Shown here piece after piece: positions 34,502 to 62,188 of a stretch of DNA of 64,000 nt. Source of the stretch: Acidobacteriota bacterium (GTDB lineage Bacteria > Acidobacteriota > Terriglobia > Bryobacterales > UBA6623); NCBI GenBank assembly GCA_016125275.1, contig WGMB01000001.1, forward strand, positions 26,079-90,078, written 5' to 3'. The position numbers and the translations under genes are program-made. Under the pieces are notes generated by a model. That model searched no databases, had not been told where the DNA came from, and saw only the letters and a list, made by a program, of their open reading frames with translations. The stretch's first letter is position 1. Each line of letters opens with the position of its first letter.

Positions 34502-36340
34502 TCAGCGCATCAGGAACCACCATGCCGCAGCGGCTGCGGCGATCAGGGCCACGACCACCGCGACGGCGATCCAGACCTTTCTGCTCTTGGGCCGCGGCTT
34601 CGCGGCGCCCTTCTTGGCAACTGGCCGCGGCTTGTCCGCTACGGCCGTCGCGTGACGGGTGTCCTCGATGCGCGACAGGATCGACGCCAGCGCTTCCGAC
34701 GCCTCTTCATAGGACGTGACGGCGGTGGCGGGGTTCTTGGAGATCATCTTGGCGACGAGCTCGGAGAGCGCCGACGGCACCCAGTTCCGATTCTGTCCCA
34801 GCGGCGGGGCGGCCTCGCCGGGGTTGCTCTGCCACTGCATCCAGGCCATGTTGGGCTGCGGGTCTTCCTCGTGCGGAAACACTCGCACGAAGCCGTCGCG
34901 GCCGGCCAGCCATTCGTAGGCGATGAAGCCGAGGGCGTAGAGATCCGCGCGAGCCACGTCCGGGGCCTCCAGCGGGGCCTCGAGGAGCCATTCCGGCGCT
35001 CTGTACTTGGGCTGCGTGACGGCCACGGTCTGGCCCGGCTCGGGCGGCGGGGCCGGGTCGATCTGAAAGTCGTCTCCGTTCAGGTAGATCGTCGAAGGCG
35101 ACAGCGCGGCGTGGTAGAGGCCCTCGGCGCGCAGGGTGATCAGGCGGTCGAGGATCTTTTGCAGCGCCGTCACCACGGGCAAGGTGCGCCCGGGCTCGGG
35201 GGCGATCTTCTCCGCCAGCGTGCGACGCGTCTTCTTGGGCCGTGGCGGCGGGGTAGCCGCTTTGGGCTTGGGGGGGGCCTTGGGCTCGGGCGGCGCCGGC
35301 TTGGCGGGCGGCGGCGGAGGCGGCGGTTCGGGCTCCGGCTGGGGTTCAGGCTCAGGTTCGGGCTCCGGCTCGGGTTCCGGGGCGCGAGGGAGCGGTTCGG
35401 CCACCGGAGGAGTTTCCACCACGGCGGGAGGAGGCTCGGGCTGGGAAATCGGCTCAGGCTCAGGTTCCGGTTGGGGCTCAGGCTCGGGCTCGGGCTCCGG
35501 TTCCGGGGCAGGTTCCGGTTCCGGTTCCGGCTCCTCGACGTACGGGCCGCCCAACTGCTCCAGCAACTCGTCGACGCTGTTGAAGCGCTGCTCGGCTTCG
35601 GGCTCCAGGCAGCGCTCCACGGCCGCCGCCAGATCCGCAGGGGTTTCGGGGGCCAGCTTGGCCACCTTCGGCGGGGGCTGCATGAAGCGCGAGATGACGT
35701 CCACGCCCTTCAGCGGCGCCTCGCCGGTGAGCATCTCGAACAATACGGCTCCGACCGAGTAGAGGTCCGAGCGAGCGTCCAACGGACGCCCCAACAGGTG
35801 CTCGGGCGAGCGGTAGGGGGGCGCTCCGCCGGGCAGCGCGATCGTCTGCTGCACGGCTACGTCGCGGGCCATCTCGAAGTCGCGCAGCTTCCAGCGGCTG
35901 TCCGCGCCGAGAACCAGGGCGTCGGGGCGAATGTCGCGGTGAATGATCCCCTTGGAGTGCAGGAACGACAGCGCCGAGCACAATTGGCGGGCGATCGGCA
36001 GCAGCTCCTCGGCGCTGAGACGCCCTTTGCGGGCCCGCAGCTCGGCCAGGGAGTCGCCGGGGGCGTACTCGGTCAGCGCGAAGGGCAGGCCGCGATGCTC
36101 GCCCAGCTCCAGCACGGCCAGCAGATGCGGGTGCCGCAGCTCGCTGGCGACGCGTCCCTGACGGAGAAAGTCCTCGCGATGCTTGGCGTTGCGCGCCGAG
36201 ACCTCGTCGATGATCTTGAGCCCGAACCGGCGGCCGCTGGTGCGGTCGAGCGCCTCGAACAGCTCATGCCGCTCCCCGCGGCCCACCGAACGGAGGATTT
36301 CAAAGCGATCGGCGACGAGCTGTCCGGCGGCGAGGTCCAT
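34502..36340 (-). CDS. Membrane-anchored tandem Ser/Thr kinase-like protein (both domains degenerate) with Pro/Glu linker
   Basis: Domain 1: [33 protein letters not shown]. (EP)n linker. Domain 2: [23 protein letters not shown]-terminal [23 protein letters not shown]. Confidence 0.85.
35324..35536 (-). repeat. Two blocks of degenerate 6-bp repeats encoding (Glu-Pro)n
   Basis: GGTTCC/GGCTCG/GGCTCA-type hexamers on + at ~35324-35380 and ~35450-35536, translating as EPEPEP... on the minus strand. Confidence 0.85.
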
Positions 36341-36378
36341 GAGCGAGGCGATCCCCCGCCCATTTTTTCACAAACGCC

Positions 36379-60300: not shown

Positions 60301-62188
60301 TGCGCCACTGGCTGAGGGCTTCGGCGGCCTGGCCCTGCTCCTCCAGGTAGCGCGCCTTGCGGACGATGCCCTGGACCAGCTCGTTCTTCTCGCGCGCCAG
60401 CGACAGCGCCCGCTCGAAGTGCGACTCGCCGGGATGCTTCTCGATCGCCTCGGTCAGGATGGCGATCTTGCGTTCGAGGTCGGGCTCCTTGTCCACGCGG
60501 CGATCGGTCTCTGCGATCGCCTGGGACAGCATCAGCCGGCCGCGCTCTTCGATGTCGAACTGCAGCGATTGGAACAGCGCGTTCGCCGGATACTTGCCGA
60601 GGAACTTGCGGCAGATCTCGCCGGCGTCGTCCAGGCGGTCCTCGCTCAGCGCTCGGCGGGCCTGCTCGTGCGCGGCCTCGATCGACTCGTGCTCGGAGCG
60701 GACCTCCTGAAACAGCTTCTGATAGGTTCCGGAGCGGTCGGGGTCGGCGTCGGGCCGCGACTGCTGCAACGACATCAGGCTCTCCATGCGGGTGAGAGCG
60801 TGGGAGACGTCGCCGCGGTTCCAGGCTTCCAGGGCGGTCTGGTAGATCTCTTCCTTGCGCTGCCGGGCGCGCTGGGCCTCACGCTCCACGCGGCCGATCT
60901 CGGTGCGCAGCTCGAGGGCTTCCACGTCGTCGGGCTTGAGCTCGAGCGCCCGGCCCACGCCTTCTTGCGCGCGCTCGTAGGCGCCGTTGGCCAGGTGCTC
61001 GCGGGCCACCCGCAGCCAGCCCTCGCGCTTTTCGGAGCGGCGTTCGCGCTCGATCTCCGCGCGCAGGGCCAAAGCGTCGGCGTCCTGCGGATCCAGGTCG
61101 AGGGCTTCGCTGACCTTCTTGAGCGCCACCGGCGTCTCACCGGCTTCGCGGAAGCGGCGCGCGCTCGCCAGCAGCTTGCGTACGCGGCCGTGCCGCATCG
61201 CCTGGTCCACGCGCTTGCGCAGCAGCGTCACCTGCTCGCTCTGCACGCCCTCGCCCTCGAGGTCGCGGACGACCTCGGCGGCAAAGTCGGCGTCGCCCTC
61301 CTCGAAGGCGGCCTGGGCGCGCTCCAGCCGTTGGCGCACCTGCTCGGGGTCGTAGAGCTGGATGGCTTCTCCGGCCAGCGCGCGCACCAGCGTGTCGCCC
61401 AGCTCCTGGGCCCGCGAGAAGCGGTGCCAGGGCTGCTTGGCCATCGCCTTGTGGATGGTTTGGCTGACGCCTTTGGGGATGCGGTTGTTGACCTCGGCCA
61501 GCGGCGGCGGCGTCCGCTCGCGGATCGCTTCGGCCAGCTCGTGAGCCGTCAGCCCGGGGAACGGCAGCCGGCCCCCCAGCGTCTCGTAGGCGACCACGGC
61601 GATCGAGTAGATGTCTGACATCGCCGTCGGCTGCTTCATGTCGAGCAGCTCCGGCGCCATGTATTGCAGAGTGCCCTTGAGCATCGTCTGCTTGCCGCTC
61701 TCGGCGGCGTGGGCGATGCCGAAGTCGATCAGCTTGACCGAGTCGTCGGGCATCACGAAGATGTTGGCCGGCTTGAGGTCGCGGTGGATCAGCCCGTGGT
61801 CGTGCGCCGCCTGTAGGCCGCGGCAGGCGCTGCGCAGGATCTCGATGGAGCGATCGAGGGTCAGCCGCGCGGACTTCTCGTCGAGCAGTTGCCGCAGGTT
61901 CTTGCCGGGCAGCAGCGGCATCGTATAGAACGGCCGCAGCACGCCTTCTTCGTCAGTGAACTCGCCGAAGTCGAAGATCTCGACGATGTTTGGATGGACC
62001 ACCTTCGACTGCGCCGCGCACTCCTTGCGGAACAGCTCGCGCGAGGTCTCGTCGTCCACGTCGAGGACGGTCTTGAGGGCGACCTCGCGGTCCAGCAGGC
62101 TGTCAAAGGCGCGGTAGACCACGCCCATGCCTCCACGGCCCAGCGTGTCTCTCAGTTCGTAGCGGTCTTCCAGGCTCCTCGCTGCCAT
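57305..62188 (-). CDS. Large membrane Ser/Thr protein kinase (kinase-TPR-Pro linker-TM-PEGA repeats-beta domain)
   Basis: Intact GRGGMGVV, VALK, HRDLKPAN, DFG and YMAPE. Long TPR-like helical region, TM VALIGGALAVLVVALLAFMFW, several PEGA-like repeats (AEISVDG...LPPGSHRV...GY). Start ATG 62188. Confidence 0.92.
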   Translation of the reverse strand: MAARSLEDRYELRDTLGRGGMGVVYRAFDSLLDREVALKTVLDVDDETSRELFRKECAAQSKVVHPNIVEIFDFGEFTDEEGVLRPFYTMPLLPGKNLRQLLDEKSARLTLDRSIEILRSACRGLQAAHDHGLIHRDLKPANIFVMPDDSVKLIDFGIAHAAESGKQTMLKGTLQYMAPELLDMKQPTAMSDIYSIAVVAYETLGGRLPFPGLTAHELAEAIRERTPPPLAEVNNRIPKGVSQTIHKAMAKQPWHRFSRAQELGDTLVRALAGEAIQLYDPEQVRQRLERAQAAFEEGDADFAAEVVRDLEGEGVQSEQVTLLRKRVDQAMRHGRVRKLLASARRFREAGETPVALKKVSEALDLDPQDADALALRAEIERERRSEKREGWLRVAREHLANGAYERAQEGVGRALELKPDDVEALELRTEIGRVEREAQRARQRKEEIYQTALEAWNRGDVSHALTRMESLMSLQQSRPDADPDRSGTYQKLFQEVRSEHESIEAAHEQARRALSEDRLDDAGEICRKFLGKYPANALFQSLQFDIEERGRLMLSQAIAETDRRVDKEPDLERKIAILTEAIEKHPGESHFERALSLAREKNELVQGIVRKARYLEEQGQAAEALSQWRMLRSIYPPYPALDLEIERLQKRGEQLSAKAERAERIAEIKALLEEDAVDEALQLCQLAWNDSPDDPELEALRATASKRREVLSQVRGLIERAEQAAREGDHERRLDLLREARRLDEDSALSKAALVTALVERARALADSNWNAAAPLVDELTRARPDHPDLPALRQKLEERKRGQFVEQFLARAVELEKQGSKEEAVATLRKALSLYPDDARLTARLNELTQPPPQPAPTLTDPPTVLYRDAEAVLGKPRAKAPAPPQATPEPQPPSPPPAPPPAIDPPKAAEPPKPPAPLKAPEPAVPAPVHAEPAQPVAKAKPAPEPKPQPKPIPPKATDKPGIDPRVALIGGALAVLVVALLAFMFWPSADTKVVESAGKLPVHLAAQPATAEISVDGQVCGTGTCDLELPPGSHRVNARLAGYESGFQTFDVAAPAPDATQPIDPLPISLSLQPWSPTLLVQTNRPSGTVFLDGEKAGEIENGEFELPALLDGEHDIRIRDAATESSLRVRVAPAQAPEVLELKAVNVDLALASVLGDSVRLYTNKDGLAARVDGQEASGPAGPGGLLVQGLSEGFHEASLGPADSATSIGFETGPRPRLAVMVSSDLPTGTLYVSANEDDAVVYLNGEPYARRKVYRGRVRIDPMPGKIKVSVRKPGFLEPAEQEVTVQKGRVSRVEFKLEPEPKRGGVQLVNGPPGAEVEVNGKPSGRLDNEGRLTLSGLEPGRLQVKVQREGFRPKQLAVSVEAGRSVQQDVSLEPAPGQIAVTVAPAGLDVALTLRKRGQPGDRSIRPGPLEVEAGNYTIEGRAEGYQPFVAEVRVEPAKTAQAIIEMKKIAVAAAPDRGPVDYMAAWRDAGGWTPRGERLVRKGGDFVYSPVSPEAGVYRFTALRQGGDPVRWFIRLGENQDYWVFQQGTRALERYRVTPGSESVSEERHDGGVGRNEPFQVEIRVEPDSITTSVLQGGNAVASDKLEKAGAGFDKGRWGFLIGKNDQVALDAFVFDPK

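Follow-up and report, generated by a model that had tools for sequence, protein, structure and literature searches.

Among the described type III secretion systems (T3SS), the 'needleless' system of Myxococcus xanthus (T3SS*; mxan_2434-2464), a member of the 'Myxo' group of Abby & Rocha (2012), has no secretin and no recognisable translocon. As far as the available portions of the papers go, its sorting platform and export apparatus are complete, and it includes several LcrH-like chaperones and FliO (PMC3459982, PMC10433427, PMC12075869, PMC12403147), it has FHA proteins and kinases encoded nearby, and it is basal among the non-flagellar systems. The account of injectisome origin given by Abby & Rocha (2012) rests, in its available portion, on one intermediate form, from Myxococcales only; the same portion reports non-flagellar systems from Chlamydiae, Proteobacteria and Verrucomicrobia alone, and lists Acidobacteria under flagella only. 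A literature search of partial coverage found no title or abstract in which a non-flagellar T3SS of Acidobacteriota is described. Here, a stretch of 64,000 nucleotides from an Acidobacteriota bacterium (the window; positions 26,079 to 90,078 of contig WGMB01000001.1) was analysed, and a contiguous, intact non-flagellar T3SS cluster with its flanks was found at 34502-62209 by Pfam and NCBIfam searches combined with codon-position GC frames. This cluster shares with the myxobacterial system all the features listed above. Its identity and placement are well supported. It probably, although by no means certainly, belongs to a phylum-wide set of secretin-less systems, most of them with an FHA-bearing SctQ, that together with Myxo/T3SS* would form a basal non-flagellar radiation outside the canonical secretin-bearing injectisomes.

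The host genome comprises 7.55 Mb in 20 contigs and has an estimated completeness of 97.6%; the window corresponds to C3:26079-90078. The relatives of its elongation factor EF-G place the host in the Acidobacteriota, Terriglobia, near Bryobacterales, as all four that bear an organism name among the 120 matches listed are Acidobacteriota (87% identity to an 'Acidobacteria bacterium', 78% to Bryobacterales, 77% to Acidobacteria and 77% to Acidobacteriia/Terriglobia). An acidobacterial host had already been proposed in an earlier reading made from the letters of the window (hereafter, the sequence-only reading), which had also described a contiguous sct cluster flanked by kinases and Tad pilins; all of these were found again by Pfam and NCBIfam. 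Reading frames were picked by codon-position GC, given the 68% G+C of the window, and genes were named by Pfam and NCBIfam. The T3SS genes form a single run on the + strand from about 37.4 to 54.5 kb, and all of the approximately 27 open reading frames (ORFs) of the cluster are intact. The G+C content is 0.68 in the cluster and 0.67 in the whole genome.

By its gene content, the export machine is complete in its cytoplasmic and inner-membrane parts (SctJ, L, N, O, Q, FliO, R, S, T, U and V), to which an SctP ruler, an SctU with its NPTH switch and a rod-like axial protein are added; the coordinates that follow are on the + strand of the window unless marked otherwise. The first gene of this series (38092-38628) encodes an SctI/SctF-like axial (rod-type) protein, with sub-threshold matches in its C-terminal 70 residues to T3SS_basalb_I (19.9 bits), T3SS_needle_F (18.6 bits) and TIGR02105 (20.5 bits), and a PDB sequence search with it gave nothing significant. 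It is followed by the inner-membrane ring lipoprotein SctJ (38594-39433; 279 amino acids (aa), PF01514 81.3 bits, one C-terminal transmembrane (TM) helix), which scored 148.4 bits on TIGR02544, below the cut-off of 162, versus 37 bits on the FliF model, so that the ring protein is indeed a short SctJ and not FliF. At the sctK position there is a 74-aa ORF (orf74, 39496-39720), conserved in the related genome G023; what had been read as a possible SctK is thus an ORF without any family match. The stator SctL (39695-40315) passed TIGR02499 (102.3 bits, cut-off 78.7), and the ATPase SctN (40312-41625) passed TIGR02546 (628 bits, cut-off 605) as well as FliI_clade2. The stalk protein SctO (41628-42116) matched the YscO-like family with 42.2 bits, and the SctP/FliK-type length-control (ruler) protein (42106-42888) passed PF02120 (35.0 bits, cut-off 29.8).

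The C-ring protein SctQ (42885-44294) carries an FHA domain at residues 81-146 (56.2 bits) and FliMN_C at residues 396-466 (78.5 bits), and passed TIGR02551 (105.1 bits, cut-off 100.8). Next to it, a 140-aa FliO homologue with one TM helix (44276-44698, PF04347 46.4 bits) is encoded in a frame that overlaps what appeared as a long N-terminus of SctR. The frame was settled by the G+C content at third codon positions (GC3); therefore, SctR (44695-45423; FliP 242 bits, signal-peptide-like N-terminus) starts at 44695, and not at 44314 as had been read. A fusion of FliO and SctR, in the form of a 369-aa ORF starting at 44314, was considered and rejected, as GC3 puts its upstream part in the other frame, that of the separate FliO gene. 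SctS (45437-45703, Bac_export_3 108 bits) and SctT (45712-46545, Bac_export_1 193.6 bits) follow. The switch protein SctU (46542-47609) passed TIGR01404 by a narrow score (359.1 bits, cut-off 358) and failed on the FlhB model; its NPTH autocleavage motif stands at residue 266 in the translation from 46545, or 267 from the ATG at 46542.

Between sctU and sctV there are four further genes. The first, orf136 (47606-48016), has no family match and is conserved in G023. It is followed by a first TPR chaperone-like protein (48023-48433; TPR_19, and LcrH_SycD 37.3 bits, below the cut-off), by orf390 (48561-49733) and by a second TPR protein, LcrH/SctY-like, encoded directly upstream of sctV (49833-50324; LcrH_SycD 60.8 bits and SctY 47.0 bits, both below the cut-offs). 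Together with a third TPR protein downstream of sctV, they account for the small TPR chaperones that had been noticed. The orf390 product, thus enclosed by two LcrH/SctY-like chaperone genes, is rich in Gly, Ser and Asn, free of Cys and of TM segments, and ends in a coiled coil; it is a candidate exported substrate and had no match in Pfam, NCBIfam or PDB, and its best score in the ESM Atlas (0.76) was under any useful level. In G023, an orf390-type gene and a TPR chaperone gene are tandemly duplicated upstream of sctV (G023:C6, about 205.6-207.5 kb; L099:5600-7550). The export gate SctV (50417-52531; FHIPEP 760.9 bits) passed TIGR01399 (749.8 bits, cut-off 692) and did not reach the cut-off of the FlhA model (665.5 bits, cut-off 772). 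The motifs quoted in the sequence-only reading were found in place, with the Walker motif in SctN and MSIDADMRAG at residue 169 of SctV.

The core is of the non-flagellar type by its NCBIfam scores, as SctV, SctU, SctQ, SctL and SctN score above the Sct cut-offs and the models of FlhA and FlhB are not passed. SctJ and SctT remain below their Sct cut-offs. SctN and SctR pass flagellar and non-flagellar models alike, whereas SctV, SctU, SctQ and SctL pass the non-flagellar ones only, and these scores agree with an intermediate character. In addition, the host keeps an ordinary flagellar system, and the cluster of the window is additional to it. This second set of export genes, for which a genome-wide check had been suggested, is spread over C13, C18 and C14 (FliF-like, FliH and FliI; FliP to FlhB; FliN and FlhA) and is adjoined by rod, hook and flagellin genes (C13, C18). 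Within the cluster, Pfam and NCBIfam revealed no rod, hook, flagellin or mot gene.

The position of the cluster was analysed with three trees. The first used SctV alone (91 rows, quick search, LG+G4), and so did the second (68 rows, quick search, LG+C20+F+G4 by posterior mean site frequencies), from which the long-branch L045 and most of the flagellar rows were removed and to which 19 acidobacterial and 10 metagenomic sequences were added. The third tree was based on concatenated SctR-S-T-U-V (32 rows, 1638 columns, careful search, with ultrafast bootstrap and the Shimodaira-Hasegawa-like approximate likelihood ratio test, SH-aLRT), with seven rows represented by SctV only. The split between flagellar and non-flagellar systems received 100/100 in the concatenated tree and 100 by SH-aLRT in the SctV trees, with the window on the non-flagellar side, and the FlhA set of the host itself fell within the flagellar side in all three. 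A canonical clade of Chlamydiota, Verrucomicrobiota, Lentisphaerota, Desulfovibrionaceae and Pseudomonadota was recovered with 100/100 and excluded the window. The window grouped with the genomes G023 and G037 (100/100), and this clade was joined to another acidobacterial genome, G075, with 90/95. The rest is a basal polytomy of five branches: the window clade with G075; G160; G046 with G085; Archangium; and a Polyangiaceae-type Myxococcota group. The earlier expectation of a deep branch near the Myxo lineage thus held for the basal non-flagellar position, but not for a sister relationship to Myxo, for which there is only the polytomy, in a comparison whose rows include no M. xanthus sequence by name. 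The trees do agree with a system related to those of Myxococcota and yet distinct from them, and neither a nesting within the flagellar clades nor a canonical secretin and translocon block elsewhere in the genome was found.

The distribution of the cluster is patchy among close relatives and wide in the phylum. Among 40 relatives from the same genus, family and order, an orthologue was present in two, G023 (another genus, SctV 75% identical) and G037 (another family, 59%), in both of which the whole cluster is colinear and intact. None of the three genomes of the same genus had the SctV of the cluster; they gave a flagellar FlhA match alone, at 35-39%. In a sample of 300 genomes of the phylum, SctV-type matches (E<=1e-150, 42-51% identity) were found in 21, and a similar core order was seen in G075, G160, G046 and G085, so that the survey of gene order proposed for Acidobacteriota gave a positive result. 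A scan of a genome collection with SctV placed a metagenome-assembled genome (MAG) of Archangium closest among the matches listed (49%), followed by Chlamydiales (45%). In a large protein collection, more than 100 SctV clusters were found at 57-61% identity and five at 74-86%, and some of them are named 'SctV' at NCBI; 10 carry the name of an organism, nine of them from Acidobacteriota (Bryobacteraceae, Bryobacterales, Terriglobales, Ca. Sulfotelmatobacter, 'Acidobacteria') and one from a MAG labelled as Betaproteobacteria. The SctV of this MAG ('Betaproteobacteria bacterium', P0066) nests in a Terriglobales/Sulfotelmatobacter subclade, which suggests an error in binning or else a transfer that is recent.

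The absence of a secretin, as noted from the letters, was confirmed in the genome-wide search, in which the SctC model TIGR02516, whose cut-off is 238 bits, scored no higher than 102 bits in this 97.6%-complete genome. The same model exceeded its cut-off in three of four genomes of the canonical clade used as controls (Achromobacter 423, Lentisphaeria 377 and Bilophila 344 bits, 526 when summed), and it stayed below it in Belnapia and in the Archangium MAG. In Belnapia arida (L022), a genome with a T3SS of the canonical clade, the best SctC match had 107.6 bits. A secretin that is split or divergent is known in rhizobial-type systems. The secretin domain PF00263 had five matches in the host genome, none of them in the cluster, and none of the 17 secretin matches in five other acidobacterial T3SS genomes lies on the contig that carries SctV. 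A weak secretin match at C3:129719 was considered as a partner of the T3SS and rejected, since the match corresponds to the C-terminal end of a CpaB/RcpC fusion protein that belongs to a Tad locus some 40 kb distant. No TM segments were found in the unassigned ORFs of the cluster and hence no hydrophobic translocators, of which divergent forms could escape this search. With no secretin, and with export apparatus, ATPase, SctJ and SctI together in one locus, the cluster has the gene combination of the Myxo type.

The earlier description included no needle gene, but a needle is probably encoded in the cluster, as a putative needle-type gene that had been overlooked, orf118, was identified between SctE- and SctG-like neighbours. 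The product of orf118 (52905-53261) is a putative divergent SctF-family needle or filament subunit by family profile, reciprocal searches and AlphaFold2 (AF2) model. Its family has 140 cluster representatives, mostly of about 100-125 aa. A profile of 61 of these sequences matched 7y6c_F, a 43-residue chain of a T3SS needle-chaperone complex, with E 6e-4, and MxiH entries with E 0.24-1.5, in an alignment at the very C-terminus; the SctI-like protein aligned with the family in hhalign with E 3.8e-4. When a hidden Markov model (HMM) of the family was run over the six-frame ORFs of the fetched T3SS loci and of the genome, the ORFs that it picked scored on Pfam T3SS_needle_F with 42.9 bits in Achromobacter (cut-off 29.4), 29.2 in Lentisphaeria, 21.4 in the acidobacterial G166 and 19.0 in a second Achromobacter ORF. 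The AF2 model of orf118 has a C-terminal helix at residues 76-117 with a predicted local distance difference test (pLDDT) of 82-96, and searches in the ESM Atlas yielded no more than leads to needle proteins and HrpA pilins. A relationship between the orf118 family and orf390 was also considered and received no support (hhalign E 0.022, probability 2%).

Upstream of orf118 lies orf90 (52545-52817), which encodes a small helical protein without any Pfam or NCBIfam match, an SctE-like co-chaperone candidate by its position and because it is predicted to contact the N-terminal region of orf118. Downstream lies the third TPR protein (TPR3, 53273-53680), a candidate SctG-like needle co-chaperone, for which LcrH_SycD was the best NCBIfam model (41.4 bits) and the needle co-chaperone family CdsG the second (32.7 bits), both below the cut-offs. 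The gene order orf90-orf118-TPR3 mirrors sctE-sctF-sctG. A predicted complex of the three proteins received a score of 0.91, versus 0.12 for the best of three controls, where the mark set for such complexes is reached by 58 of 80 solved complexes and by 2 of 110 mismatched pairs; at least 74% of the contacts agreed between runs, and partner pLDDT was at least 60. In this prediction, the C-terminal helix of orf118 lies in the TPR groove of TPR3. The needle module is supported at the level of sequence by these data and, because it is found together with a FliK-type ruler and an NPTH switch, the system probably builds a length-controlled axial structure and would be secretin-less but not needle-less.

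In the Archangium MAG, the two TPR chaperone genes that precede sctV enclose a 185-aa ORF (L008:8604-9158, +). This ORF has no Pfam name, and the orf118-family HMM matched it in the C-terminal register with E 2e-6. The Myxococcota systems called needle-less may thus encode a cryptic needle-type subunit.

The cluster has a sigma-28-like factor of its own, as had been proposed. A FliA/WhiG-like sigma factor with Sigma70_r2 and r4 regions is encoded at 37385-38053 (its start is uncertain, with candidates at 37241-37391) and scores 120.9 bits on TIGR02479, below the cut-off of 189.6, whereas a separate FliA paralogue adjoins the flagellar flhA and fliN genes on C14. The regions before orf390 and orf118 have in common CAACTT-N13-GCGATAACTCGGG. 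The exact motif CAACTT-N13-GCGATAA, which we take to resemble the sigma-28 consensus, occurs four times in both strands of the 7.55 Mb genome, versus 0.035 occurrences expected under a mononucleotide model. Three of these four copies are in the cluster, correctly oriented and before non-core genes: at 37244-37269 on the - strand, facing a gene for a 270-aa protein; at 48453-48478, before orf390; and at 52824-52849, before orf118. A near-match (CAACTT-N13-ACGATAA) is found at 38055-38080, 11 nucleotides (nt) before the SctI-like gene. The motif is kept at orthologous sites in G023 (sctI and orf390) and in G037 (sctI, and the -10 element before orf118). The proposed sigma regulon is supported, at the level of sequence, by this conservation and by the cluster-specific distribution of the motif.

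The 270-aa protein (MKINQKL..., 36379-37191, - strand) has neither a signal peptide nor a TM helix and, with the motif upstream of its gene, is a candidate exported substrate. It gave a weak sub-threshold Pfam match alone, no NCBIfam match and nothing significant in a PDB sequence search; its homologue in G023 is 45% identical, and its AF2 model made without an alignment was unusable (pLDDT 39). The fourth exact copy of the motif lies outside the window, 20 nt before a gene for a 466-aa protein (MRIPPDTPR..., C14:296766-298166, in the region C14:296720-298166, L140:720-2166) that has no Pfam or PDB match. This gene may be an unlinked member of the regulon of the T3SS sigma factor, and its product a possible substrate.

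The wiring of the cluster to FHA domains and kinases was also analysed. The fusion of an FHA domain to the C-ring protein, correctly recognised in the sequence-only reading, recurs in other acidobacterial families, by Pfam in G075, G046 and G085, and in G160 the two parts are split into adjacent ORFs. A word-indexed search for FHA-SctQ returned 16 proteins, a number that sets no bound on the distribution of the fusion. At the end of the cluster, after orf112 (MKINSRPP..., 53703-54041; no family match, weakly conserved in G023 and G037), a 164-aa protein (54049-54543) has an FHA domain (FHA 53.9 bits, Yop-YscD_cpl 35.4 bits) and a C-terminal TM helix (residues 140-158). By these matches it is an SctD-like cytoplasmic stub that lacks the periplasmic domain.

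Two Ser/Thr kinase-like proteins flank the cluster, both encoded on the - strand, and their motifs bear out the kinase and pseudokinase pair reported earlier. STK1 (34502-36340; 612 aa, Pkinase 145.7 bits) has two kinase-like lobes with a Pro/Glu-rich linker between them, and a TM helix at its C-terminus; it is degenerate and pseudokinase-like because GxGxxG is missing and HRDIRPDA and DFE stand in place of HRDxKxxN and DFG. STK2 (57305-62209, with an alternative ATG start at 62188; 1634 aa, Pkinase 149.7 and PEGA 90.3 bits) is a canonical Ser/Thr kinase with TPR and PEGA domains and every catalytic motif present. A homologue of STK2 (54% identical) lies beside the cluster of G023, and homologues of STK1 flank the clusters of G023 and G037. 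It is a reasonable inference from this gene content that export is gated by phosphorylation. Beside the cluster of G037 (C19, about 22-28 kb; L101:14900-19600) there are genes for a 567-aa protein with an FHA-like N-terminus, a PP2C-like protein and several Ser/Thr kinases, the FHA-like and PP2C-like labels having been given by eye from motifs in the sequence.

When compared with the systems of Myxococcota, the locus of the Archangium MAG has a similar order (N-O..Q-FliO-R-S-T-U-TPR-x-TPR-V). The acidobacterial system differs in its phylum, in a SctV that is just 49% identical, with the monophyly of the two left as a polytomy, and in having a FliA-like sigma factor that is dedicated to the cluster and has a promoter motif to itself. 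Furthermore, SctQ carries an FHA domain here, whereas that of Archangium has FliM and FliMN_C (FliN) domains; the 164-aa FHA-TM stub stands here in place of a separate 373-aa double-FHA protein; and the SctE/F/G-like module is recognisable here, while Archangium has a weaker SctF-like ORF.

With the canonical injectisomes (Ysc/Psc and the chlamydial Cds), the cluster shares the SctV, U, Q, L and N models, the SctP ruler and the NPTH switch, the modules I-J-(K)-L-N-O-P-Q-R-S-T-U, an SctY-like gene followed by SctV, an SctE-F-G-like group and, as predicted here, a TPR co-chaperone gripping the C-terminal helix of the needle subunit. It differs from them in that no SctC, periplasmic SctD, SctW, SctK or hydrophobic translocators were found, in the presence of FliO and of an FHA domain fused to SctQ, and in its position outside the canonical clade (100/100). 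AraC-type regulators are known for canonical injectisomes, and in their place a sigma-28-type regulator is found here. With the flagellar export system and its FliA regulon, a homologous core, FliO, a FliK-type ruler and a FliA-like sigma factor are held in common, and the putative promoters likewise precede axial and late-substrate genes, with a motif presumably of the sigma-28 kind. Unlike the flagellum, the cluster lacks FliF and the genes of rod, hook, filament and stator, and it forms a separate lineage in the trees, and the host has a FliA of its own.

Put together, these data suggest a model in which the FliA-like sigma factor of the cluster would drive CAACTT-N13-GCGATAA promoters before the sctI operon, orf390, orf118, the 270-aa gene and the unlinked 466-aa gene. 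The machine would then build a short, length-controlled axial structure in the periplasm and switch afterwards to a few late substrates. Export would be gated by Ser/Thr phosphorylation, supplied by the flanking active kinase and pseudokinase, and the phospho-signal would be read by the FHA domain of the C-ring and by the membrane-anchored FHA stub at the place of SctD. If substrates do cross the outer membrane, the route could be provided by a partner, for example, a Tad apparatus like that of Myxococcus.

Several points weigh against this interpretation, and against the secretin-less, basal assignment behind it. No outer-membrane component was identified for the system, and searches with the SctD model TIGR02500 and the SctW model PF07201 gave nothing at E<=0.01, two negative results from models run without a positive control. 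The deep nodes of the trees are polytomous, and hence a secondary loss of the secretin is possible. As for the needle module, orf118 itself has no Pfam or NCBIfam match, and three of the four reciprocal T3SS_needle_F matches fall under the cut-off, which makes the SctF assignment one of remote homology. The YscE-F-G and PscE-F-G complexes have solved structures, which the predicted complex of TPR3, orf90 and orf118 may echo, as a likeness and not as a proof of binding. That the promoter motif belongs to the FliA-like sigma factor of the cluster is something that we infer. Finally, kinases flank the cluster in the host, G023 and G037 alone, that is, in the clade of the window, and no kinase above 80 bits was found within up to 20 kb on either side (less at contig ends) in six other lineages.

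A different proposal for the function of the cluster can be made from the genes that follow it, which encode a TadG-like (54956-56221) and two TadE-like minor pilins (56238-56705 and 56739-57170), all + strand, by Tad and TadE Pfam matches. In it, the T3SS would work with a Tad pilus in a Myxococcus-like predation tandem, with the TadG/E/E triplet as the 'tip' that delivers substrates in contact-dependent killing or lysis. The triplet stands directly downstream of the cluster, and the T3SS* of M. xanthus is described, in the available portions of two papers (PMC12075869, PMC10433427), as working together with the Kil Tad pilus, whose tips are KilL/M/N (TadE/F/G-like). The host also has Tad machineries and scattered orphan TadG/E clusters, reminiscent of dispersed tip loci. 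One of these machineries, at C3:128633-133395 (L126/L127), about 40 kb past the end of the window, starts with a CpaB/RcpC (SAF/RcpC) protein fused to a weak secretin-like C-terminus and continues with CpaF, TadB and TadC and then a PQQ/EF-hand protein. Far from any Tad ATPase, at C3:279416-286409 (L128), metabolic genes (sulfatase, epimerase, sucrose-synthase) surround two orphan clusters of the TadG/TadE/TadE-like kind as well as a gene for a 586-aa TadG-VWA protein. However, the Tad genes adjoin the T3SS in only one of seven acidobacterial loci, being absent beside the orthologous clusters of G023 and G037 and, within 20 kb on either side (less at contig ends), in four further lineages, and no CAACTT-type sigma promoter motif was found in the 412 nt upstream of tadG. 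The occurrence of similar TadG/E clusters among metabolic genes, and the lack of any FHA gene among the ten ORFs scanned at the nearest Tad machinery, about 40 kb away, also speak against the tandem, and the Kil tips are reported as Myxococcota-restricted in the available part of one study (PMC12075869). The Tad link that had been read from the neighbourhood is thus reduced to an adjacency in this one genome. The predation tandem is unlikely, and the Tad/predation link is speculative. We know of no predation in Acidobacteriota.

Less likely still, and quite improbable in our estimate, is that the cluster is a relic or a repurposed canonical injectisome from which secretin, SctD ring and translocon disappeared secondarily and which now has a role in periplasmic export or regulation only, or is in decay. 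The patchy spread (2 of 40 relatives, none of three in the same genus, 21 of 300 in the phylum), the polytomy at the base of the trees and the SctE/F/G, SctP and SctU switch features common to canonical systems are compatible with such a loss. In contrast, the approximately 27 ORFs are intact, the cluster is colinear down to 59% SctV identity, its G+C content fits that of the genome, and FliO, a flagellar-type feature, is retained. Moreover, a linked secretin is missing from the Myxococcota lineages and from five or more acidobacterial ones, which would require many parallel losses, and the canonical clade (100/100) leaves out all the secretin-less lineages.

A second, cryptic flagellar-type export apparatus, for example, of a modified or periplasmic flagellum-like organelle, is hardly credible despite FliO, the FliA-like sigma factor, the FliK-type ruler and the near-equal scores of SctN, SctR and SctT on flagellar and non-flagellar NCBIfam models, as the trees place the cluster with non-flagellar systems (100/100), the FlhA and FlhB models fail where those of SctV, SctU, SctQ and SctL pass, the ring protein is a short SctJ, the rod, hook and flagellin genes are missing from the cluster, as is mot, and adjoin the real flagellar set elsewhere, and FliO is also known in non-flagellar T3SS of Myxococcota (PMC12403147, in its available portion).

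Regarding the rest of the region, the genes to the left of 34.5 kb are unrelated to the T3SS (Nramp, CHAD, Usp, porin, DnaJ and ABC-2 families, among others). Planctomycete-type PSCyt/PSD cytochrome-domain proteins (DUF1549, DUF1553, DUF1592 and others) are encoded at 23271-26027 of the window (- strand) and at C3:134606-138819.

Our preferred reading, that of a basal, secretin-less non-flagellar system, would add a second and very abundant soil phylum, with several secretin-less lineages, to the same basal radiation as the Myxo systems. The acidobacterial system would have its own wiring, with a private FliA-like sigma factor and a definable promoter, an FHA domain in the C-ring and a kinase and pseudokinase pair, and the regulon defined by the motif provides a short list of candidate substrates. 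It would also give evidence, at the level of sequence, that secretin-less machines keep a needle-type subunit and its chaperones. If the secretin-less systems of Acidobacteriota, and probably those of Myxococcota, have an SctF-type subunit, SctE/G chaperones, SctP and the SctU switch, then the needle may have come before the secretin. As a tentative proposal, to which we give considerably less than even weight, the ancestral non-flagellar T3SS would have built a length-controlled needle-like filament prior to the acquisition of a secretin, the 'needleless' label of T3SS* would be wrong, and Acidobacteriota would hold several ancient lineages, with private sigma-28 factors and FHA/kinase control, acting on neighbouring microbes. 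Some Acidobacteriota are culturable, and genetics and cryo-electron tomography are perhaps realistic, given a T3SS-positive isolate. It can now be tested what role a T3SS has without an outer-membrane pore, whether the needle is older than the secretin and whether Ser/Thr phosphorylation gates type III export.

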